Positions 1 to 58,034 of a stretch of 64,000 bases of DNA are shown piece by piece. The number at the start of each line of letters is the position of its first letter. The first letter of the stretch is position 1. The notes under the pieces are model-generated. The model was not told the origin of the DNA. It saw only the letters and a list, made by a program, of their open reading frames with translations, and did not search any database. This stretch comes from a virus, in the IMG/VR virus record IMGVR_UViG_3300020472_001862, positions 96,001 through 160,000 of that record; one strand, given 5' to 3'. The position numbers were made by a program, and so were the translations under genes.

Positions 1-639
1 AAAAGATTCTTTGCTGCTGATAATATTTCTAAATACATTCACCCAGGTGAGACTGCAGAATTAATTGAAGAACTAGAAGTAGCCTTTGAACAAGTTTTAC
101 AAAGTCTTATTATTGATACAACAAACGACCCTAATAGTATGGGTACAGCACATCGTCTAGCTAAGATGTATATAAATGAAATCATGGGTGGTAGATACAA
201 ACCTGATCCTAGGATTACAGCATTTCCTAACGATGGACAATACGATCAATTGATTGTAGTTAGAGCAGACATTAAAAGTATGTGCTCTCATCATCACCAG
301 CCGGTTAGTGGTACATGTTATATAGGCTGTATGCCTGGTGAGGAAGTTATTGGACTTTCTAAATACACTAGAGTTGCACAGCATCTATCTAATCGTGGAC
401 ACTTACAAGAAGAACTAACAGAAATGATAGGCGAAAGGATTGAAAAACTTACAAAGTCTAAAGCTGTTGGTGTTTATATTAAAGCAAGGCATGGTTGTTG
501 TGAGAACAGAGGTATATTGGCAAGCAATAGCTCTACACAAACAACTGTCTTAAAAGGTGAACTAAAAACTAATCCTTCTCTTAAAGAAGAGTTTATGGAT
601 AATATTAAGTTACAGGAAATGGGAAATGGATACCTCTAA
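1..639 (+). CDS. folE: GTP cyclohydrolase I (5'-truncated by the window edge)
   Basis: Frame is open from base 1 (KRFFAADNISKY...). Motifs SMCSHHHQP, IGLSKYTR, LQEELT, ARHGCCENRG. Confidence 0.93.
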   Translation, partial: KRFFAADNISKYIHPGETAELIEELEVAFEQVLQSLIIDTTNDPNSMGTAHRLAKMYINEIMGGRYKPDPRITAFPNDGQYDQLIVVRADIKSMCSHHHQPVSGTCYIGCMPGEEVIGLSKYTRVAQHLSNRGHLQEELTEMIGERIEKLTKSKAVGVYIKARHGCCENRGILASNSSTQTTVLKGELKTNPSLKEEFMDNIKLQEMGNGYL

Positions 640-1132
640 ACAAGTAGTCGTTGACTTAGAAACATTAAGCATACATCCTAATGCGTGTATCGTATCTATT
701 GGTGCAGTACTAATAGAAGATATGGAAATTACAGATACATTTTATATTAATGTTGACGGTAGAACATGTAAAGAGGCAGGCCTACATATAGATCCTGACA
801 CAATTAAATGGTGGGGAGAACAAAGTAAAGAGGCACAAGAGGCTTGGCAAAAAAATCCTGTTCCTTTACAAGAAGCAATAGATAAGTTTACATTGTGGTA
901 TGGCAAAGAGTCTATTCCTATTTGGGGGTACGGTGCTAACTTTGATGTAGTAATATTAGAGAGTGCTTACAGAGCCTTAGACATGAATATCCCTTGGAAG
1001 TTCTGGGACATATCATGTTTAAGAACATTAATGAATGTCTTAGATAAAAGATTACCTAAGGCAAACAATCACAATGCGTTAGATGATGCTACGGCAGAGG
1101 CAAAAGTATTAATTGAGATATTGAAATCATGA
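626..1132 (+). CDS. DEDDh 3'-5' exonuclease (DexA/ExoVIII-like)
   Basis: VVDLETL, WGYGANFD, HNALDDA motifs. Confidence 0.85.
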   Translation: MDTSKQVVVDLETLSIHPNACIVSIGAVLIEDMEITDTFYINVDGRTCKEAGLHIDPDTIKWWGEQSKEAQEAWQKNPVPLQEAIDKFTLWYGKESIPIWGYGANFDVVILESAYRALDMNIPWKFWDISCLRTLMNVLDKRLPKANNHNALDDATAEAKVLIEILKS

Positions 1133-2397
1133 GTAGAAAATTAGATTATGTAGTATCAGGTACTTCTTATATGAGATTTAGTAATCCTGGTATAGCAAAA
1201 GACGAAACAAATTCACAAATTATTAATATGCTAATAGACAAGCTGGTAACAGATGTCCATAGTCATAAATTTTCTATGCTTTACAATGGACATACCGAGT
1301 CTAGCTTTGGAGATAGATTCACAGCATATAAAGATCATGTACATGAAATACATGCAGACTCAGGTGGGTTACAAATTGTTACACAAGGCATGACTATCAC
1401 AGATGAATTGAAAGACAAAGTATATGAGAACCAGGCGGAGTGGGCAGATGTAGGAATGTGCTTTGATGAGATACCTGTTATACTTACAGGCGACAGATCA
1501 GATAGGAACGATACAAAAGCTAGGTTCTTTGACTTTGAAAACTATGAAGAACTAGCTCGTAAGACAGGTAGGAATGTTAAAAGACAACTAGAAATATTTG
1601 ATAAGGCAGATAGTAAATGTAAACCTTATATTATCTTACAAGGTAATTGTGTTGACACATATCTTAGATGGTATGAATGTTTAATGGAAGAAGTTCCTGC
1701 AGAATGGCATGATAGAATTGGTGGCGTAGCAATGGGAGCAGCAGCTCTAGGCACAGGTCCACTTGAAGATGTTAAACGAGCCTTTATTGCTAGTGAGATT
1801 GCTAAAGTATGGCCACAAGAAACTATGCACTTACATGTATTAGGAGTAGGCAGTATTAGGCGTATGATTCCATATCTAGTCTTTTGTCAGAATGGTTTGT
1901 ATGATAATGTAGAAATATCTTATGACTCTACAACTCATAGTAGGGCGGTTGAGACAGGTTTATACTACATGGGACAAGGCACAACTAAGTTTAGCAGAAA
2001 GATGTCTAATTTGTATCGAGAAATGTATGATAATGTGCAGGAAACGATCCAATTAGGCGTAGAATTAGACGAATTCCACACCATTATGAACACACCTAGC
2101 ATGAAAGCTAAAGAGAAATATGGCAATCTAAACAAGTGGATATATGTTAGAACAGCATTTATCCTTATGTCCATTAGAAACTTCATGGCACATCTAGAAC
2201 AGATGATGAATGACAAAGAAACCTTATTGAAGTTTACGGGTAAGATGAAACTTGACGGCCAGTTCAGGAACCTCTATAATGTAACTAATCGTGAGCAATT
2301 TGATGCTTGGGAAAATAACCAGTACTTAGGTGGCAGTATGAAGAGTATGGCTGTTGGTACAGAGGCACCTAGTAGTTTAGAGGATTTATTCACATGA
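1129..2397 (+). CDS. dpdA: TGT-fold 7-deazaguanine DNA transglycosylase (DpdA-like)
   Basis: ADSGGLQ, MCFDEIP, ILQG, HLHVLGVGS, SYDSTT motifs; lies among folE/queD. Confidence 0.78.
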   Translation: MSRKLDYVVSGTSYMRFSNPGIAKDETNSQIINMLIDKLVTDVHSHKFSMLYNGHTESSFGDRFTAYKDHVHEIHADSGGLQIVTQGMTITDELKDKVYENQAEWADVGMCFDEIPVILTGDRSDRNDTKARFFDFENYEELARKTGRNVKRQLEIFDKADSKCKPYIILQGNCVDTYLRWYECLMEEVPAEWHDRIGGVAMGAAALGTGPLEDVKRAFIASEIAKVWPQETMHLHVLGVGSIRRMIPYLVFCQNGLYDNVEISYDSTTHSRAVETGLYYMGQGTTKFSRKMSNLYREMYDNVQETIQLGVELDEFHTIMNTPSMKAKEKYGNLNKWIYVRTAFILMSIRNFMAHLEQMMNDKETLLKFTGKMKLDGQFRNLYNVTNREQFDAWENNQYLGGSMKSMAVGTEAPSSLEDLFT

Positions 2398-2537
2398 TAG
2401 ATAAAGTAAAAGAAAATATAGAATTTTGTAAATGTAATTGGAAAGCCTTGTTTATAGGTAGTTTCTGTATGCACTTTATATTCGACTGGATTATATTTGG
2501 ATTGGGTGTAACATTAGGTATGCACATAGGACACTAA
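2394..2537 (+). CDS. 47-aa predicted membrane protein (not in ORF track)
   Basis: ATGA overlap with the dpdA stop; MIDKVKENIEFCKCNWKALFIGSFCMHFIFDWIIFGLGVTLGMHIGH; ends just before the next ATG (2539). Confidence 0.6.
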   Translation: MIDKVKENIEFCKCNWKALFIGSFCMHFIFDWIIFGLGVTLGMHIGH

Positions 2538-2538
2538 C

Positions 2539-3096
2539 ATGAATATATTTTTACTTAATGAGAATCCATTACTATGTGCAGAACAACATTGTGATAAGCA
2601 TGTTGTTAAAATGGTAATTGAATACGCACAGCTCATGTGTACAGCACATAGGTATTTAGACGGAGAACTATATGGCGAACTTACAGACAAAGGTAGAAAA
2701 ATTAAAAGATGGCGACACCCAAACACTTGTATGGAGGCTACTTTATACAAGGCAAGCCATGTCAACCATCCAGATGGTTTGTGGGTTAGAAATAGTTCTG
2801 CCAATTATGACTATCTATATGATCTATGGTTTAAACTATGTAAAGAATATACTCATAGGTATGGTAGGCTACACTTAACACAAGAAAAACTAGAACACTT
2901 GTTAAAGTTTGCTCCTAAGAATATTCCATTTGCTACTGAGGCAGATGTAAAAGGATTACCATTGGCAATGCCTGATGATGTAAAAGGTAAGAGTGTAGTC
3001 AACTCTTATCGTAGGTATTATAACAAATACAAAATTGACTTTGCTAATTATACAAACAGGGAGAAACCAGAATGGCTATTGCAAACAGGTACATAA
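2539..3096 (+). CDS. pyrimidine-dimer DNA glycosylase / DenV-related protein
   Basis: MNIFLL..CAEQHCDKHVVKMVIEYAQL..AH, HxNHP, EYTHRYGR, PLAMP pattern. Confidence 0.75.
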   Translation: MNIFLLNENPLLCAEQHCDKHVVKMVIEYAQLMCTAHRYLDGELYGELTDKGRKIKRWRHPNTCMEATLYKASHVNHPDGLWVRNSSANYDYLYDLWFKLCKEYTHRYGRLHLTQEKLEHLLKFAPKNIPFATEADVKGLPLAMPDDVKGKSVVNSYRRYYNKYKIDFANYTNREKPEWLLQTGT

Positions 3097-3458
3097 AAGT
3101 ATCATTCCAAAGAGAAGGTGTACATAAATTTCCAGGAGCTGATACAAATCCTGATTATGCTACAGGTGACTGGCGTGATGTTAGTTTCCTAGGTTATCCT
3201 CATAGACACATATTCCATTTTTATGTAACACTAGGTGTTTCTCATAACGATAGAGATGTAGAGTTCATACAATTTAAGCGTGAACTAGAAAGACAGTTTG
3301 AACAAGGAACATTACAACTAGATTACCAGTCTTGTGAGATGGTAGCAGAAAATCTTATAAATTATATAGAAGAGCAGTATCCTAATCGTGCAGTAAGAGT
3401 TGAAGTGTATGAAGATAATGAAAATGGAGGCATACTAGAGAATGATTTATTTAATTGA
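3072..3458 (+). CDS. QueD-like T-fold paralog, candidate CDG decarboxylase (DpdL-like)
   Basis: LGYPHRHIF, RDVEFI, SCEMVAE and VEVYEDNENG motifs; second T-fold gene in the deazaguanine cluster. Confidence 0.65.
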   Translation: MAIANRYIKVSFQREGVHKFPGADTNPDYATGDWRDVSFLGYPHRHIFHFYVTLGVSHNDRDVEFIQFKRELERQFEQGTLQLDYQSCEMVAENLINYIEEQYPNRAVRVEVYEDNENGGILENDLFN

Positions 3459-4503
3459 TTTAGAATATGTCGAGACACGATACACAGCACAATGGAAGAC
3501 AGAATTTCCTCAGCAAATAGCAGATCAAACAGAACAAGACATAACTGTTATTGAAGGTCCAGAAGAGATAGCAGCGTGTACAACACCAGGTGCCTTCTTA
3601 AACTTTGCAGGCACAAACATATACAAGTCAGAACAAGTAAAACTTCTTGCAGAATATTTTAACAACAATCAGATTAAGAACGGAGATCATTTTGTCTTTG
3701 CAGACGCTTGGCATCCAGGTATTATTAATCTTAAATACATGTTAGATTTATTTCAGATAGATGCAACAATACATGCACTATGGCATGCAGGTAGTTATGA
3801 CCCTCAGGATTTTTTAGGTAGATTAATTGGTAATAAAAAGTGGGTAAGGCATACAGAACTAGCATTGTTTGATGCTATAGATAAAAACTATTTTGCTAGT
3901 AACTTTCATATAGAATTATTTGTAGGTGTCTTCTTTGGTCCTGATGATGAAGAATATATTAATAGTAAAATTGTTAGAACAGGTTGGCCTATGGAATACT
4001 TAGGCAACTACATAAGGCCAGATAGATTGGAAAAAGAAAATATTATTCTATTCCCTCATAGAGATGCACCTGAAAAACAATTAAATATATTTAAAGACTT
4101 AGAAAAAGAATTGCCACAGTATAAATGGATTAATTGTAATGAATATAATCTAACAAAACCAGAATATAATCAGTTACTTGAACAATCCAAGATGGTTTTC
4201 TCAGCAAACCTACAAGAAACATTAGGTATTAGCTGTTATGAGATACTAAGAGCAGGAGGTATGCCTTTAGTTCCTAATAGATTATCATACAAAGAAATGT
4301 ATGAGGACATATTTAAATATCCTACACAATTTACACTAGACTGGAAAGGATATCAGGACAACAAAAGTATTCTATTAGGTAAAATAGAAACAATGATGGA
4401 AAATTTTAATTCACCTGAAATACAAGGTGCAATTAAGAGTAATAGAGACATGCTAGAGGAACAATATTTCTCGGCAACAAATTTATATCAGGAGTTAAGA
4501 TGA
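3442..4503 (+). CDS. GT-B fold glycosyltransferase
   Basis: HAGSYD, FPHR..PEKQ and QETLGIS..E (EX7E) signature. Confidence 0.75.
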   Translation: MIYLIDLEYVETRYTAQWKTEFPQQIADQTEQDITVIEGPEEIAACTTPGAFLNFAGTNIYKSEQVKLLAEYFNNNQIKNGDHFVFADAWHPGIINLKYMLDLFQIDATIHALWHAGSYDPQDFLGRLIGNKKWVRHTELALFDAIDKNYFASNFHIELFVGVFFGPDDEEYINSKIVRTGWPMEYLGNYIRPDRLEKENIILFPHRDAPEKQLNIFKDLEKELPQYKWINCNEYNLTKPEYNQLLEQSKMVFSANLQETLGISCYEILRAGGMPLVPNRLSYKEMYEDIFKYPTQFTLDWKGYQDNKSILLGKIETMMENFNSPEIQGAIKSNRDMLEEQYFSATNLYQELR

Positions 4504-4955
4504 GAGATTACAAATACTATTCAACAAAAACTTATGGACATGAGGAAGGACTTTCATGTATGTTTAGACAGCCTTTAGCAACGCATAGTCATTGTAGCTT
4601 ACTACATGGTTACGCTTTGTCTTTTAGTTTTAAGTTTGGTTGTAACCACCTTGATGATAAAAATTGGGTAGTTGATTTTGGAGACTTAAAAGATCTTAAG
4701 GCATGGTTAAAAGATTCTTTTGATCATAAACATGCAGTAGCAAAAGACGATGAACACTTAAATTACTTCTTAGAGATAGAACAAAAAGGATTATCAGAAG
4801 TGAGAGTAATGAATGGTGTAGGTTGTGAGAAGTTTGCAGAACAAGCATTCCATTTCGCAGATGATTTAGTTAAGAAGAAAACAGAAGGCAGGTGTTACGC
4901 TGTCTCATGTGAAGTTCGGGAACACGGGGCTAACAGCGCTATATACGAGGGCTAA
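4500..4955 (+). CDS. queD: 6-carboxytetrahydropterin synthase
   Basis: HCSLLHGY, WVVDFGDLK..LKDSFDH, GCEKFAE, EVRE motifs. Confidence 0.88.
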   Translation: MRDYKYYSTKTYGHEEGLSCMFRQPLATHSHCSLLHGYALSFSFKFGCNHLDDKNWVVDFGDLKDLKAWLKDSFDHKHAVAKDDEHLNYFLEIEQKGLSEVRVMNGVGCEKFAEQAFHFADDLVKKKTEGRCYAVSCEVREHGANSAIYEG

Positions 4956-17513: not shown

Positions 17514-19073
17514 ATGAACAAGGGTATTATATTAGGTTGTCTACAACAGAACCCAGGTTGGCAAGGCGCATTAGGAGCGCTAAACCCAAACTGGGTTAAC
17601 CTCAAAAGATCAGGTGGCGCACATAAGATAGCCACTTTCATGCGTAAAGAAGGTTGGGACATTGAAGTCCTCGATTACTGGTTGGCATTTGAAGAGCATG
17701 AGTTCAAACAATTTGCCCGTTCAAGGATAACACAAGATACAAAATTCATAGGTGTTAGTGTTACCTTTGGATACAAATTAGACCTATTACAAAGAGCACA
17801 AGATCATCTTAAATGGTTAAAGGAAGAGTATCCTGATGTAACTATAATTGCTGGATCTAAAATGCTAGTTGACATCATGGTCCTACCTTGTGATTATTAT
17901 GTATGTGGTTATGGAGAGTATGGATTAATTAAATTATTAAAGGGTGAAGCAACGATAACAAAGTTTCAAGGATTGAATTGTGTTATGGCAGATAGACATC
18001 ACCCTTGTTTCCCTAGTAAAGATTTGCGTGTTGAGTATGAGGATAGAGACTTTATTCAACCCACAGATACTCTAACACTAGAACTCTCCCGTGGTTGTAA
18101 ATTTAAATGTAAGTTCTGTTCATACAATGCAATAGGTATGAAGGGAGACTTAACTAGGGATATGGATACTTTATATGATGAGATGTTATCTAACTATGAA
18201 AGGTTTGGTGTAACTAGCTATCATGTGGCAGACGAAACAACAAACGACAATCAAGAGAAAATAAGATTTGCTGGTAGTGAAATACAAAAACTTCCTTTCA
18301 AACCAAACCTAACAGGATTTATTAGAGCAGATATATTATCCACAAGAGAGGACGATAAAAAGTACCTAGCAGAGATGGGATTCTGGGCTCAGTATTATGG
18401 TGTGGAAACTTTTAACCAAACTGCAGGTAGAACTGTAGGTAAAGGTATTGATCCTGATAAACTTAAAAGGGGATTGCTGGATACTAAAGACTATATGAAC
18501 AAACATTGTGGCAGGTATAGGGCAACTACAAGTCTAATATTAGGACTGCCTTACGAGACGTCTGAGAGCCTCTATGATGGTTTAAATTGGTATAGAGAGC
18601 ATATGCCTAATGAGAATTTAGTGATGCAACCCTTATACATAAACAGACAAATAAACGAATTAATGTTTGCATCCTCAGAGTTTGGTAGAACATGGAGGCA
18701 GTCTGGACACTTTCATCCTGAGGAAATAAAAGAAGAGATTACTGCTGAGGATTACGCAGAGTTTTCAGAACACCCTATGTTACAAGGATATATTAAGAAT
18801 TTACATAGTGAACAACATAACTTACATTGGAGCCACGATAGTTACACATGGAAGTCAGCAATACTAGAGTTAGCTAGAACTATGCAACAGGGTTTGTATG
18901 ACCCTAGAATTAATAGGATAATGACATGGGATTTATTTAACTTTATAACTCCAGGAACATATGATTATGATAGTGTATTAGAACTATCTATCATGGGTTA
19001 TGATGTTAAAAAACTCACAGAGGATACCAATACATACATTAAAAACTATAAAGAGGCAAAATTAAATGCCTAA
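17514..19073 (+). CDS. B12-binding radical SAM enzyme, copy 1
   Basis: Cobalamin-domain pattern (HKIATFMRKEGWDIEVLD, IGVS, IIAGS, DYYVCGYGE); SRGCKFKCKFC; DET; GVET; ILGLPYET. Confidence 0.88.
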   Translation: MNKGIILGCLQQNPGWQGALGALNPNWVNLKRSGGAHKIATFMRKEGWDIEVLDYWLAFEEHEFKQFARSRITQDTKFIGVSVTFGYKLDLLQRAQDHLKWLKEEYPDVTIIAGSKMLVDIMVLPCDYYVCGYGEYGLIKLLKGEATITKFQGLNCVMADRHHPCFPSKDLRVEYEDRDFIQPTDTLTLELSRGCKFKCKFCSYNAIGMKGDLTRDMDTLYDEMLSNYERFGVTSYHVADETTNDNQEKIRFAGSEIQKLPFKPNLTGFIRADILSTREDDKKYLAEMGFWAQYYGVETFNQTAGRTVGKGIDPDKLKRGLLDTKDYMNKHCGRYRATTSLILGLPYETSESLYDGLNWYREHMPNENLVMQPLYINRQINELMFASSEFGRTWRQSGHFHPEEIKEEITAEDYAEFSEHPMLQGYIKNLHSEQHNLHWSHDSYTWKSAILELARTMQQGLYDPRINRIMTWDLFNFITPGTYDYDSVLELSIMGYDVKKLTEDTNTYIKNYKEAKLNA

Positions 19074-25114: not shown

Positions 25115-26378
25115 AAACCAAATAGAAGCATTACAACTTATTAAGGACGAACAGGATGCAGTAGGTCCTGGTTTCTGCGTGCTAAAATGGTACCACCAAG
25201 AAATGCACTTAGGAACAGGAAGGGCACACTCCTGTTATCATTGTCCTACACATCAAATACCTTTAGGCGCAGACTTACACAATACACCTCACAAGGTTGA
25301 ACAAAGAGCAACAATGTTACAAGGTGGCAAACCTTCAGAGTGCTCTTATTGTTGGGAGGTAGAGGATCTTGATCTAATCTCAGATAGACAAACTCTTGCA
25401 GTACAATTTTTTAAACATAATAGAGATATAGTTAAAGAGGCAAAAGAAGCAGGACTTGGTTATGTATATCCTAAATATTTAGAAATATCCTTCACTAATA
25501 AATGTCAAATGGCATGTAGTTATTGTGGACCGGTATTCAGCACAACATGGGAAAAGGAAATAGAGGAACATGGTCCTTACAAACTATCAGAGGATTATAA
25601 TCTTATTCATACACCTCAGATAGAAAACTCTCCCTATGTGGCAAAGTTTTGGAAATGGTTTCCACAGGCATATGAACACTTATTTGTTCTTAGAGTAACA
25701 GGAGGAGAGCCTTTATTAGATAAGAATACATATAAACTTCTAGAATATGTTAAGGCAAATCCTAGAAAAGGATTAACATTCCATTGTAATTCTAATCTTA
25801 TGGTTACAGAAAATAGAGTACAAAAATATATTAACCTAGTAAAAGATGTACCTAATACTAAACTTTATGCTAGTATTGACTCATGGGGAAAACAGGCAGA
25901 GTATATAAGACATGGTTTAGAGATAGAACATTTTGAGGCAAACTTAATTAGATTATTAGCTCAAGGAATTCCTGTTGGTATCATGTGTACATATAATTTT
26001 TTATCTATTGATAATATTAGTGAGTTTATATTTAAAATGGCGGAACTTAAAACACAATTTGGTGATTTACTAACAGTTGACATGCCTTATATGGTTGAAC
26101 CATTACACCTTTCAGCACAAATTTGCGATGATAGTCATATACATATAATGGAAGAAAGTTTAAAAGAAATGGAACTATATCCATTTACTACAGGCGAAAT
26201 AGAAAAATACAGAAAGACTGTAGGATGGATAAAAGCAAACAGGTTCAAAGGTGATGAACTTGTCAAACACAGAAAAGATTTCTGGGCGTTTGTAAAAGAA
26301 CATGATAAGAGAAGAGGCACAAATTTTAAAGAAGCTTTTCCTCACTTAGGAATGATAGGATTTAATAATGAAACATGA
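25095..26378 (+). CDS. radical SAM protein with extra Cys clusters (twitch/SPASM-associated type)
   Basis: FCVLKW, SCYHC, ECSYCW, NKCQMACSYC, TGGEP, YIRHG. Confidence 0.88.
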   Translation: MERKLNKNQIEALQLIKDEQDAVGPGFCVLKWYHQEMHLGTGRAHSCYHCPTHQIPLGADLHNTPHKVEQRATMLQGGKPSECSYCWEVEDLDLISDRQTLAVQFFKHNRDIVKEAKEAGLGYVYPKYLEISFTNKCQMACSYCGPVFSTTWEKEIEEHGPYKLSEDYNLIHTPQIENSPYVAKFWKWFPQAYEHLFVLRVTGGEPLLDKNTYKLLEYVKANPRKGLTFHCNSNLMVTENRVQKYINLVKDVPNTKLYASIDSWGKQAEYIRHGLEIEHFEANLIRLLAQGIPVGIMCTYNFLSIDNISEFIFKMAELKTQFGDLLTVDMPYMVEPLHLSAQICDDSHIHIMEESLKEMELYPFTTGEIEKYRKTVGWIKANRFKGDELVKHRKDFWAFVKEHDKRRGTNFKEAFPHLGMIGFNNET

Positions 26379-47838: not shown

Positions 47839-49407
47839 ATGAACCACGGTATTATAATGGGTGGTGTGGTTGACTATTATTATGATTCAATCAAACGAGC
47901 ACCCGGCGCACATAAAATTGCTACACATCTAAGACGAGAAGGATGGGACGTCGAGGTATTAGATTTTGTTCAATCCTGGACAATAGAAGAACTGCAAGAA
48001 TTCACAAGACAAAGAGTACATTCAGGGACAAAGTTCCTCGGCCTTAGCGCTACATTTTCTATTAGATTTAAAACATTATATGAATTCGCCAGATGGTTTA
48101 AGAAAGAATACCCAGACATTCTAATCATAGGAGGATCTCAGGCATTCCATAATTGTGAGGGACTGCCCTTAGACTATATGGTACATGGCTATGGTGAGTT
48201 GGCTATGAGTGCTATTCTTAGCGGAGATGTTAGGTATCAGACACATAAATGGCTTAATGGACACAAATTTAGGCGCGTAGACGCCACACATGACTATATG
48301 GCAGCGCGTATGAAAGACCTAAGTACACATTACGAGGAAAGGGACTATATAGAGCCACAGGAGGTCCTTACAGTAGAGTTTGGGCGTGGTTGTATATTTA
48401 ACTGCCACTTTTGTACCCTCACTTATAGGAACATTAAGGACGATCACAGCAGGGCTGAGGACAACTTATATCAGGAAATGCTAGAGAACTATAACAAATG
48501 GGGCACAACAAACTACTCTATATCTGATGAAACAGTTAATGATTACACAGAAAAGATAGAAAGATTTGCCGGTGCTATCAGAAAATTGCCTTTTAAACCT
48601 AATTGTGCAGGTTATATTCGTGGAGACTTATTAGTACATAAACAAAAAGATTGGCAAGCAATCGAGGATATAGGCTTAAATACACAATTCTATGGTATAG
48701 AATCTTTCCATACACCTTCAGCAAAATCTGTAGGTAAAGGTATGCAGTCAGGTAAACTACAAGATGGTTTATTAGAATATAAAGACCATATGAGGAGTAA
48801 AGGACACTTCCAGGCACATTTAAGTCTAATAGCAGGACTACCACATGAAACATTAGACACATTAAGAACAACTAAAAAATGGATAGTGGATAATTGGGTA
48901 GGACAATCAGCACAAATTATGCCTTTGTGGATTCCAGATCAAACTAGAATATATGAAGAACAAAGTAGATTTGCAATGGACCCAGGCAGATACGGCTATA
49001 CAAAAACAACAATGGAAGAGTCTAGTAATGGATTCTGGGAAGACGCACCTCATAAAAGATTTGGAAATTTGTATAGGGGTATAAAAAAGAGAGAAGAAGA
49101 GGAAACAGGTGTAGTATATAACACAGAAGAGAGTACATTCCAGGAAGAAATGTCTTTTATGAACTGGAAAAATGATAATACTAATCTATATCAAGTGTTA
49201 AATTACTTAGAACATGAGTGGTATGTTGGTGATGAACAGTTATGGAAAGAACCGCCTTTACCCTTCTCATATCATAATTGGCTAATAGACCCTAATTATA
49301 AATGGGAAGATATGTCTAAACCTAAGTCAGAATTAGCTGTTCCTCAGGAATTAGCTAGAAACTTTATAGAAAATTATAAAAGGAAAAAGTTAGGATTAAC
49401 TTCCTGA
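47839..49407 (+). CDS. B12-binding radical SAM enzyme, copy 2
   Basis: KRAPGAHKIATHLRREGWDVEVLDF, IIGGS, DYMVHGYGE, GRGCIFNCHFC, DET, GIES, IAGLPHET. Confidence 0.88.
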   Translation: MNHGIIMGGVVDYYYDSIKRAPGAHKIATHLRREGWDVEVLDFVQSWTIEELQEFTRQRVHSGTKFLGLSATFSIRFKTLYEFARWFKKEYPDILIIGGSQAFHNCEGLPLDYMVHGYGELAMSAILSGDVRYQTHKWLNGHKFRRVDATHDYMAARMKDLSTHYEERDYIEPQEVLTVEFGRGCIFNCHFCTLTYRNIKDDHSRAEDNLYQEMLENYNKWGTTNYSISDETVNDYTEKIERFAGAIRKLPFKPNCAGYIRGDLLVHKQKDWQAIEDIGLNTQFYGIESFHTPSAKSVGKGMQSGKLQDGLLEYKDHMRSKGHFQAHLSLIAGLPHETLDTLRTTKKWIVDNWVGQSAQIMPLWIPDQTRIYEEQSRFAMDPGRYGYTKTTMEESSNGFWEDAPHKRFGNLYRGIKKREEEETGVVYNTEESTFQEEMSFMNWKNDNTNLYQVLNYLEHEWYVGDEQLWKEPPLPFSYHNWLIDPNYKWEDMSKPKSELAVPQELARNFIENYKRKKLGLTS

Positions 49408-56675: not shown

Positions 56676-57376
56676 GAAATTGGGGGCCCGATAGGATTAA
56701 GTATTCAGACGCTCCTAATAAAGTAGCGAATGATAGAAATCATATAGATATACTTGAGCAACCTATATATAATACAATGGACGATCAGAATGGTATCCAT
56801 TTTAGCCCTCACGAAATAGATTATACAGAATGGAAGGAAAGTATAGCAATATTTGGAGACTCTACAAGTTACGGACAATACCTTAACACAGGAGACTCTT
56901 TACATGAAATATTATCTTTCGATAGGCCTGTAAATAATTTTGCCTATCCTGCTGAAGGTAATGGACATATATTTAAAAAGTTTACAAATGTTGTAACAAA
57001 ATATGGTTTGCCTTGGGGTGTAATAGTAGGTTACTCCAGCCCATGGCGAATAGCACATACAAGAGAGGATGATAATATAGTTGAGTCTATTGGGCATTGG
57101 TCTAAGGAATATACTAAAGATCAAGCAGGAGCTATCCAATTTTTGTCTGAATGTAGGAAAACAATATTAGGACAAACTTACGATATTAAAAGTGCTATGA
57201 GAATTATGTGTAAGGATATTAAATATTTTGAATGGACAGCTTTTATAAAGAATAAATTTTTTGATGATGTATATCAACTTAGGTGGAAGGATCATGCCTC
57301 AGACGGAGTACATCCAGGACCAGAGACAATGAGATATTTGGCAAGAAAGATTGAAAAAGAGTGGAGAGATGTATAA
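56654..57376 (+). CDS. SGNH-like hypothetical protein
   Basis: IFGDSTSYG, VNNFAYPAEGN, DGVHPG. Confidence 0.55.
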   Translation: MFGMRGIRNWGPDRIKYSDAPNKVANDRNHIDILEQPIYNTMDDQNGIHFSPHEIDYTEWKESIAIFGDSTSYGQYLNTGDSLHEILSFDRPVNNFAYPAEGNGHIFKKFTNVVTKYGLPWGVIVGYSSPWRIAHTREDDNIVESIGHWSKEYTKDQAGAIQFLSECRKTILGQTYDIKSAMRIMCKDIKYFEWTAFIKNKFFDDVYQLRWKDHASDGVHPGPETMRYLARKIEKEWRDV

Positions 57377-58034
57377 TATAGATGGAGCAGGAGTTCCTAA
57401 AGGTGTAATAGGTGTTGTAGTATCAGGAGGCTTTGATAGCACTGTGCTGTGGCATTATCTGTATGGTATTTGTAAAGAAAGGAATCAAAAGATTATTCCT
57501 TTTACTGTACCTAAAAATGATGGAGCATTAACATACGCTATTAGAATGTTAGAGTGGAGTGCTAAAAGATATGGTGATAAAACTCTCCACCCTGTTGTAA
57601 TAAATTCTAAAGGTGTTAACTGGAGTAAAAAAGATTATCAAGGTGAAGAGGTAGCAAGGCAATTAATTGATGGTATAAAAGAGATAATGGACTTAGGTCT
57701 AGCTGGTTATGTTTACACAGGAGTGAATGAGTATCCACCTAATTATGAGACATTATGTTCATATCATGTACCCGGACCTAGAAATTTATCTAGGGATAGT
57801 GATTTTATTTACAAAGGCAGACCTGTAAGTGATATTATAAGGCAACCTTTTGCAGATTTAACTAAGACAGATTTAATTAACTTTGCAAATGAACTAGGAA
57901 TATTAGATGAGGTAATGGAAATATCTCATAGTTGCGTTGAGCTTATAAGAGGCAGGTGTGGGGAATGTTTTTGGTGTAAAGAAAGGGAATGGGGTTTTGC
58001 TGAGGCAGGACTAGTAGACAAAGGAACAAACTAA
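57351..58034 (+). CDS. QueC-like PP-loop ATPase
   Basis: VSGGFDS, PF..L.K, SHSC-x7-CGECFWC.ER. Confidence 0.75.
   Translation: MKKSGEMYNIDGAGVPKGVIGVVVSGGFDSTVLWHYLYGICKERNQKIIPFTVPKNDGALTYAIRMLEWSAKRYGDKTLHPVVINSKGVNWSKKDYQGEEVARQLIDGIKEIMDLGLAGYVYTGVNEYPPNYETLCSYHVPGPRNLSRDSDFIYKGRPVSDIIRQPFADLTKTDLINFANELGILDEVMEISHSCVELIRGRCGECFWCKEREWGFAEAGLVDKGTN

Follow-up and report, generated by a model that had tools for sequence, protein, structure and literature searches.

The window analyzed in this study is a stretch of 64,000 nucleotides within the 170 kb, 99%-complete genome of a marine T4-like myovirus. A block of modification genes is placed between the homologues of T4 gp55 and gp47. All eight ORFs at positions 1-4955 were verified on the + strand at the positions given by the first-pass annotation, and its description of the genes as overlapping or closely abutting was borne out: neighboring genes overlap by 4-25 nt or are separated by 1-3 nt. 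Most of its gene identifications also match the families and folds found here; the exceptions are described below with the genes concerned. We are highly confident that the block is a deazaguanine DNA-modification cluster.

Base synthesis and accessory genes

FolE, QueD and QueE are families established to convert GTP to 7-carboxy-7-deazaguanine (CDG). The first gene encodes FolE, GTP cyclohydrolase I (1..639, +; PF01227 131.9 bits; phrog_2197 E 7e-45). Its identity stands as annotated earlier; its 5' end is cut by the window, and the true start lies 44 nt upstream, giving a protein of 227 aa. QueD, the CPH4 synthase of 151 aa, is the last gene of the block (4500..4955, +; PF01242 46.7 bits; phrog_2389 E 3e-37). 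It has the PTPS fold with the motif CxxxHGY, a variant of CxxxHGH that is invariant in an alignment of 8 phage QueDs, including that of phiST. QueE had been correctly placed outside the window and was found upstream at genome positions 94427-95305, ending 695 nt before the window; it is followed by a 69-aa ORF and a xanthine/guanine-type phosphoribosyltransferase (PRTase).

QueC is absent from the cluster itself. A diverged QueC-like PP-loop ATPase is encoded 54 kb away (57351..58034, +), adjoining the RNR small subunit gene. It was recognized by PF06508 (36.3 bits, last 55 aa only) and by the motifs SGGFDS and C-x8-C-x2-C-x2-C, and it is kept in 4 of 5 related partial genomes. From these sequence features it is a possible member of the pathway, so the modified base need not be plain 7-deazaguanine (DG).

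Three further genes accompany the block. The DEDDh 3'-5' exonuclease, Rv2179c-like (626..1132, +; PF16473 138 bits; phrog_255), is probably a DexA-type phage exonuclease; it is kept at the same place in T4-like relatives and lies beside the glycosyltransferase gene in BUCT-ZZ01. The 47-aa ORF (2394..2537, +) shows a single hydrophobic segment in its translation, as in a membrane peptide, and is patchy, occurring in only part of the relatives and not always at the same place. The 185-aa basic protein (2539..3096, +; pI 8.8; phrog_624 E 8e-53) had been called DenV-like. It is possibly EndoV/DenV-like, with PF03013 (Pyr_excise) reaching only 18.5 bits against a cut-off of 23, below the threshold for T4 EndoV. 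It is absent from about a third of the related loci and is not a core gene.

DpdL, the transglycosylase and the glycosyltransferase

The T-fold protein of 128 aa is a QueD paralogue (3072..3458, +) in which LxxxHRHxF replaces the CxxxHGH of QueD; it carries LGYPHRHIF exactly. All 23 homologues aligned have H44, R45, H46 and F48, and H18, E64, C88 and E89 are further invariants of the family alignment. The protein matches phiST DpdL with 37% identity (HMM match E 1e-23), and the companions FolE, QueD, QueE and DpdA are all present. The earlier description of DpdL as an LxxxHRHxF protein proposed to be a CDG decarboxylase agrees with Cui et al. 2023 (PMC10516641); the conversion of CDG to 7-deazaguanine is a proposal of these authors, for phiST as well. 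The stop of DpdL overlaps the start of the glycosyltransferase gene by 17 nt, and the same overlap is seen in about 35 loci.

The DpdA-type DNA guanine transglycosylase of 422 aa (1129..2397, +; phrog_10773 E 3e-96) has zero Pfam matches. In its structural model (pLDDT 88.5) a TGT (beta/alpha)8-barrel fold is predicted, and all 50 Foldseek PDB matches listed are tRNA-guanine transglycosylases (best E 1e-9, TM 0.46-0.61). An alignment of 13 homologues shows no variation at D77, S78, G79, G80, Q82 and D266, and hhalign (93.5%) places these residues on the P540-family motifs LGDSGGFQ and FDCA; the protein thus has the DSGG(F/L)Q motif and the catalytic Asp within (Y/F)D(S/C). Residues 5-303 match phi-Grn1, phi-ST2 and ValKK3 (tblastn E 1e-45), and the same search gave no match to phiST or the Campylobacter phages. 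The enzyme is therefore putatively DpdA2-like rather than DpdA3, and its family suggests that it may exchange guanine for a deazaguanine in phage DNA.

The glycosyltransferase of 353 aa (3442..4503, +) was modeled with a pLDDT of 94.8. The model has a predicted GT-B fold of two Rossmann domains that is nearest to the GT4 type, and the top Foldseek matches are BshA, MshA, PimA, PglA and GlgM. The EX7E motif (E259...E267) is intact together with the basic residues R207 and K212 for the nucleotide-sugar diphosphate. Across 38 homologues with 25-89% identity, E267 is invariant, and E259, R207 and K212 are nearly invariant. These features are those of a retaining GT4-type enzyme. The protein stays below the Pfam Glycos_transf_1 threshold (PF00534, 16.1 bits vs a cut-off of 26.4); it is a very diverged member of the family, and PF00534 is carried by some homologues.

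A T4-type glucosyltransferase acting on hmC or hmU was also considered. The T4 DNA glucosyltransferases are not among the Foldseek PDB matches listed, and a cyanophage protein named 'DNA alpha-GT' ranks only 46 in the viral library. PF00303 is unmatched in the 99%-complete genome, which encodes ThyX only; because a ThyA-family hydroxymethylase is absent, this assignment was rejected.

Linkage of the glycosyltransferase to DpdL and DpdA

DpdL is encoded upstream of the glycosyltransferase in all 89 viral contigs that extend at least 700 bp upstream, and all 63 that extend at least 5.5 kb upstream contain a DpdA-type gene; these counts overstate independence since the compared loci are mutually related. 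The DpdA-type genes comprise 27 that are DpdA2-like and 36 of the P540 type, with the motifs LGDSGGFQ and FDCASPF. The co-occurrence analysis suggested in the first-pass annotation is therefore strongly positive. The glycosyltransferase adjoins deazaguanine genes in every close relative examined, and the trio with DpdL and DpdA is found in shuffled order in ACP17, X1/BUDD, PA5oct-like phages, Phosso, BCSR5 and BUCT-ZZ01, a linkage that spans five to at least six cultured phage lineages. Similarly, on bacterial chromosomes the glycosyltransferase lies beside a P540-type DpdA, and in one roseobacter a deazaguanine-precursor transporter of the YhhQ family is also adjacent. The glycosyltransferase and DpdA stay together even in islands without DpdL, FolE and QueE, which indicates that the glycosyltransferase goes with DNA insertion and not with base synthesis. 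Conversely, phiST has DpdL without the glycosyltransferase and makes plain 2'-deoxy-7-deazaguanosine (dDG), and close relatives of the glycosyltransferase were never found without DpdA. Such a distribution agrees with an optional step that comes after base synthesis.

The glycosyltransferase could in principle be unrelated to DNA modification, serving for example host envelope or phage protein glycosylation and being a neighbor only through the clustering of early/middle genes. Its Pfam match is generic and sub-threshold, and a distant branch with about 25% identity, represented by PhiXhv-12, lies beside GlmS and a BshB-like deacetylase with no dpdA within 14.7 kb. Independence from dpdA, named earlier as an observation that would speak against the idea, applies only to this branch. 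However, the linkage outlasts shuffled gene order, two DpdA subfamilies, the cultured phage lineages and the bacterial islands, and the translational overlap with DpdL speaks against a chance neighbor. We regard an unrelated enzyme as very improbable; the glycosyltransferase probably belongs to the deazaguanine pathway.

Proposed pathway and alternatives

In the proposed pathway, FolE, QueD and QueE would turn GTP into CDG, and DpdL would turn CDG into 7-deazaguanine. The DpdA2-like TGT-fold enzyme would then swap guanine in the phage DNA for the deazaguanine base. As the gene linkage suggests, the glycosyltransferase would move a sugar from a UDP-sugar to the deazaguanine, acting either before insertion on the free base, which HuiG glycosylates at N2, or on the base once it is in DNA. 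Against this step, nucleotide-sugar genes are absent from the cluster, and an epimerase gene is 70 kb distant. The upstream PRTase would most likely convert the released guanine to GMP, which would drive the exchange and supply FolE again. The end product would be phage DNA with G replaced by a sugar-bearing 7-deazaguanine, which may block restriction enzymes and perhaps deazaguanine-specific glycosylases. In line with this explanation, PA5oct DNA is resistant at G-containing restriction sites (PMC12191111). Taken as a whole, we hold this pathway to be the best explanation, with its chances of being right or wrong about evenly poised.

The part of the pathway that places the sugar on the DNA base is one that we would accept or doubt with equal readiness. 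7-Deazaguanine has no evident hydroxyl to act as acceptor, and we know of no precedent with a characterized mechanism, HuiG included, for a retaining GT4 enzyme forming an N- or C-glycoside. The solved structures nearest to the glycosyltransferase act on malate, inositol phosphate or lipids, not on DNA, and phiST reaches full dDG replacement without it. A precedent in favor is HuiG, a GT4-type enzyme that transfers GlcNAc onto N2 of the free 7-deazaguanine base in huimycin biosynthesis (PMC7439116); it is also the one qualification to the earlier statement that a GT-B enzyme has no characterized role in this route. The alternative offered earlier, a T-fold protein making a different 7-substituent, is conceivable, with the evidence weighing neither for nor against it.

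In a first alternative, the DNA would carry plain dDG as in phiST and the glycosyltransferase would act on a soluble or transient species, so that the virion DNA is sugar-free. The glycosylated deazaguanine might then be a carrier, a storage form or a huimycin-like antimetabolite, or the enzyme might glycosylate a by-product of the pathway. Consistent with this, the closest solved folds are the small-molecule GT4 enzymes BshA and MshA, HuiG works on the free base, base-paired DG has no obvious acceptor, and Vibrio phage VP1, like phiST, carries plain 7-deazaguanine. However, the glycosyltransferase is tied tightly to DpdA even in the bacterial islands described above, the phage would gain little from a soluble glycoside, and a decorated base could be inserted because TGT-family enzymes accept large 7-substituents. 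This reading is rather unlikely in our estimate.

A second alternative is a nucleotide-level route, in which the PRTase attaches CDG or DG to PRPP in the manner of TubE in tubercidin biosynthesis, with decarboxylation by DpdL; the deaza-GMP would be reduced and phosphorylated and then built into DNA by the polymerase. The roles of DpdA and the glycosyltransferase would be secondary, for example in a repair-type exchange or in nucleotide decoration. 7-Deaza-dGTP is a good polymerase substrate, and the tubercidin pathway pairs a PRTase with a decarboxylase on CDG. The PRTase is kept in the cluster in both phage groups and also in PA5oct and BUCT-ZZ01. Among cultured phages, its best relatives are those of Flavobacterium phage immuto_2-6A and phiST, precisely the phages in which 100% of G is replaced (PMC10516641); it tracks these full-replacement phages and not the glycosyltransferase. 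On the other hand, the PRTase scores best as a xanthine/guanine type (NF006613 E 3e-13), which fits simple guanine salvage, a dGTP-clearing enzyme was not found in the cluster, and the presence of DpdA in every locus points to base exchange. We consider this route improbable, more so than the first alternative.

Returning to the sugar-bearing base, we propose tentatively, at slightly less than an even chance, that an abundant marine T4-like lineage together with ACP17, PA5oct, BUCT-ZZ01, Phosso and X1 replaces guanine with a glycosylated 7-deazaguanine through a GT4-type enzyme working with DpdL and DpdA, which would be the first sugar-bearing purine in any DNA. No description of a sugar-bearing purine in DNA was found in the literature searched. 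To our knowledge, sugars on DNA bases have been described only for pyrimidines (glucosyl- or arabinosyl-hmC and base J), and all known phage deazaguanines bear small 7-substituents. If the proposal is true, deazapurines bearing a sugar form a new class of bases in DNA. The G modification of PA5oct, a phage considered for therapy, would then be identified, and the finding would be relevant to the recently reported defence glycosylases specific to deazaguanine. It would also account for ACP17, whose dpdL and dpdA gave no dDG in E. coli, where the authors suggest that further enzymes are required (PMC10516641). At 50% identity the glycosyltransferase family forms at least 1067 clusters, and its members occur on at least 598 IMG/VR contigs; as it is present in common marine T4-like phages, the modified base could occur widely in the ocean.

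Comparison with known systems

The T4 alpha- and beta-glucosyltransferases are likewise phage GT-B enzymes, acting after replication on a modified base in DNA; in contrast, they need 5-hydroxymethylcytosine, for which the window genome has no ThyA-family hydroxymethylase. BshA and MshA, retaining GT4 enzymes dependent on UDP-GlcNAc, match the glycosyltransferase best in structure (Foldseek E 9e-11 to 5e-9) and share its EX7E motif. In BCSR5 and PhiXhv-12 a PIG-L/BshB-like deacetylase accompanies the related glycosyltransferase, a pairing that recalls BshA and BshB. However, the identity to BshA and MshA is 11-13%, the acceptor domain is unrelated in sequence, and there is no deacetylase in the window cluster.

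HuiG of Kutzneria albida (PMC7439116) is also a GT4-type enzyme (PF13439) encoded with FolE/QueD/QueE-type genes, and is likened here by class and reaction, not by sequence; it makes a soluble secondary metabolite and is encoded without DpdA. The Vibrio schizoT4-like phages nt-1, VH7D, phi-Grn1 and phi-ST2 share the T4-like background and a homologous transglycosylase (E 1e-45), the matched ORFs being taken as putative DpdA2. In contrast, they carry QueC/QueF/ArcS/DpdM and low-level bases of the preQ0/preQ1 type, and they have neither DpdL nor the glycosyltransferase.

The phiST dDG system (FolE, QueD, QueE, DpdL and DpdA3; Cui, Hutinet et al., NAR 2023, PMC10516641) shares FolE, the CxxxHGY QueD, QueE, the HRHxF DpdL and the lack of QueC in the cluster. 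A related PRTase with 45.7% identity is present in phiST but encoded elsewhere in that genome. phiST lacks this glycosyltransferase family and uses DpdA3, whereas the window encodes a putatively DpdA2-like enzyme and a glycosyltransferase that overlaps DpdL. The DNA of phiST is known to contain dDG, whereas for the phage of the window a modified base is predicted.

Layout of the deazaguanine gene block

The record is 170,236 bp long with 99% completeness (CheckV), and its source virus is a T4-like myovirus. The sole nucleotide-level match in the phage collection was gp46 of Prochlorococcus phage P-HM1; a cyanophage identity was rejected because psbA is absent from the genome. UvsY, UvsW and the late sigma factor gp55 are located just 5' of the block, and gp47/gp46 (SbcD/SbcC-like) directly 3'. 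All the open reading frames listed in the first-pass annotation are present on the plus strand, overlapping or abutting: FolE (window 1-639, true start 44 nt before the window), an Rv2179c-like DEDDh exonuclease (626-1132), a 422-aa DpdA-like protein (1129-2397, phrog_10773), a 47-aa hydrophobic ORF (2394-2537), a 185-aa EndoV-like protein (2539-3096, phrog_624), a 128-aa T-fold protein, DpdL (3072-3458), a 353-aa glycosyltransferase, GT (3442-4503), and QueD (4500-4955). The queE gene, said to be missing from the window, was located upstream at genome 94427-95305. It is followed by a 69-aa ORF and then a 141-aa phosphoribosyltransferase (PRTase; genome 95512-95937, 63-488 nt 5' of the window), and the whole block therefore occupies the gp55-gp47 junction. 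The 185-aa gene, formerly described as DenV-like, and the 47-aa ORF are not counted in the core module, since many related loci lack them or have them displaced.

Predicted enzymes of base synthesis and exchange

The DpdA-like protein had no match in Pfam. Its structural model is confident (pLDDT 88.5, 13 homologues in the input), all 50 of the Foldseek PDB matches listed are tRNA-guanine transglycosylases, and the protein and its homologues (n=13) share invariant DSGGLQ and YDS motifs. We provisionally call it DpdA2-like, not DpdA3, because its cultured-phage relatives include the Vibrio schizoT4-like phages placed in DpdA2 by Cui et al. (PMC10516641), with phiST and Campylobacter phages not among them; this label was assigned by matching phages. 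The T-fold protein carries LGYPHRHIF and can be aligned to the DpdL of phiST, a phage known to make the deoxynucleoside of 7-deazaguanine, dDG (PMC10516641). QueD has CxxxHGY in place of CxxxHGH, a motif invariant in 8 phage QueDs, that of phiST among them. PDB sequence searches with the GT, DpdA and 185-aa proteins, as single sequences and as profiles, returned nothing useful.

The best NCBIfam match of the PRTase is xanthine phosphoribosyltransferase. Its best cultured-phage matches are in phiST (45.7%) and Flavobacterium phage immuto_2-6A, for both of which 100% G substitution was reported by Cui et al., who did not discuss this phosphoribosyltransferase (PMC10516641). The gene is not specific to GT; it is also present in PA5oct, in BUCT-ZZ01 and in the two groups of viral contigs. 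Its simplest role would be guanine salvage, drawing the base exchange forward; a bolder alternative, by analogy with tubercidin, would place it in a nucleotide-level route.

A diverged QueC-like PP-loop ATPase with SGGFDS and a four-Cys zinc motif (C-x8-C-x2-C-x2-C) is encoded at window 57351-58034, adjoining the RNR small subunit. Of five related partial genomes, four retain the gene, one of them as a tandem pair. Its presence means that this lineage is not certainly QueC-less, and the protein could amidate or otherwise activate CDG.

Nine large radical-SAM proteins (391-538 aa) are also encoded, more than is usual for a T4-like phage: three at window 17514-19073, 25203-26378 and 47839-49407, a tandem array of five at genome 12501-19231, and one at genome 166676-168292. 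Three of these proteins were compared with Pfam, and two of the three have a B12-binding domain. The genome also encodes a NifU-like Fe-S scaffold protein (genome 89867-90295).

Linkage of the glycosyltransferase to DpdA and DpdL

The GT model has a pLDDT of 94.8, and its nearest folds are the GT4 retaining enzymes BshA, MshA, PglA and PimA. The EX7E glutamates E259 and E267, together with R207 and K212, are retained across 38 homologues with identity down to 25%. We take GT to be a predicted active nucleotide-sugar transferase. An hmC/hmU glucosyltransferase was rejected because the genome encodes no hydroxymethylase. Isoelectric points fail to tell DNA-binding from small-molecule enzymes among these proteins, since DpdA and gp47 are acidic as well. 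An NAD-dependent sugar epimerase/dehydratase (PF01370, E 2e-44) at genome 29061-29936, 70 kb from the cluster, may be the source of the donor sugar.

In a set of 1.8 billion representatives, the GT family forms at least 1067 clusters at 50% identity; it is also found on at least 598 IMG/VR contigs, and 94 contigs were fetched for synteny. Co-occurrence of GT with dpdA/dpdL, a check proposed in the first-pass annotation, was borne out. DpdL is upstream of GT in 89/89 viral contigs whose upstream DNA spans 700 bp or more, and a DpdA-type gene is present in 63/63 where it spans 5.5 kb or more; these raw counts overstate independence because the compared loci are related to one another. The stronger argument is that the linkage recurs with two DpdA subfamilies, in several gene orders and in bacterial islands.

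Two architectures were found among the viral contigs. The T4-like marine contigs show the same gene order as the window. In PA5oct- and Phosso-like contigs of up to 364 kb, the DpdA2-like protein is replaced by a 510-560-aa protein with LGDSGGFQ and FDCASPF (P540-type), which profile comparison relates to the DpdA2-like family (93.5%, E 2e-7). Among cultured phages, the trio of DpdA, GT and DpdL recurs with its genes rearranged: the order is DpdA-GT-DpdL in ACP17 and PA5oct-like phages, GT-DpdA-DpdL in X1 and BUDD, and DpdL-GT in Phosso; the trio is present in BCSR5 as well. The family HMM identifies the 388-aa protein encoded after DpdL in BUCT-ZZ01 as a further GT homologue (E 2e-33). The bacterial genome scan used a family profile built from a 9-sequence alignment. 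A P540-type DpdA gene lies within about 4.5 kb of GT in all 27 bacterial contigs with a GT ORF called by the family HMM; among these, chromosomes of Pelagibacterium, Devosia, Methylobacterium and roseobacters have no FolE/QueE nearby.

The converse linkage fails: phiST, RHph_I1_18, Ahp1 and two Vibrio phages have DpdL but lack this GT. Close GT relatives are thus tied to DpdA and DpdL is independent of GT, as would be expected if GT carried out an optional tailoring step.

Several individual loci were also recorded. In the cultured freshwater Synechococcus phage BUCT-ZZ01 (L110:5373-9530), DpdA-DpdL is flanked by two group-1 glycosyltransferases, and the cluster also encodes an XGPRT and an Rv2179c-like exonuclease. 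Burkholderia phage BCSR5 (L113:5998-11575) encodes DpdL, an AAA_28 ATPase, a PP-loop protein, a PIG-L/LmbE-like deacetylase, a 155-aa ORF, GT, a 446-aa unknown and QueE. In Xanthomonas phage PhiXhv-12 (L143:4624-7858), a distant GT relative (25% identity over 61% of the query, tblastn) adjoins GlmS and a BshB-like deacetylase; dpdL is absent nearby and there is no dpdA within 14.7 kb, and the locus may serve a different amino-sugar modification of DNA or surface. Vibrio phage Bakedbeans gp176 (L111:5212-6363) is a 383-aa protein with DpdL as its C-terminal third and no Pfam match in its N-terminal 260 residues. In Rhizobium phage RHph_I1_18 (L109:8408-9232), a protein annotated as macro-domain (Appr-1-p processing), with no match in the Pfam scan, follows DpdL in the place of GT. 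In bacteria, an OLD-family nuclease adjoins the Pelagibacterium island (L124), DpdA-x-DpdL-GT stands beside a VapE-like gene in Methylobacterium (L131), and the chromosome of the roseobacter Pseudooctadecabacter jejudonensis (L139:9401-12557) carries a YhhQ/Vut_1-family transporter, GT and a P540-type DpdA.

A possible sugar on the base

Whether the phage DNA carries a sugar-bearing base is about evenly balanced. Against it, 7-deazaguanine lacks a hydroxyl group, the closest structural matches to the GT model are enzymes acting on small molecules, and plain 7-deazaguanine is present in the DNA of phiST (PMC10516641) and Vibrio phage VP1. No description of a glycosylated deazaguanine in phage DNA was found in the literature searched. 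In favor of a sugar-bearing base, PA5oct DNA contains a modified but structurally uncharacterised G (PMC12191111), and expression of ACP17 dpdL and dpdA in E. coli yielded no dDG, for which the authors suspected missing enzymes (PMC10516641). Related GTs are paired with a PIG-L/BshB-like deacetylase in BCSR5 and PhiXhv-12. This pairing mirrors BshA/BshB and, by analogy, points to UDP-GlcNAc as the donor in that branch of the family. A further precedent is the GT4-type enzyme HuiG, encoded in a cluster with FolE, QueD and QueE, which transfers a sugar onto the N2 amine of the free 7-deazaguanine base (PMC7439116).
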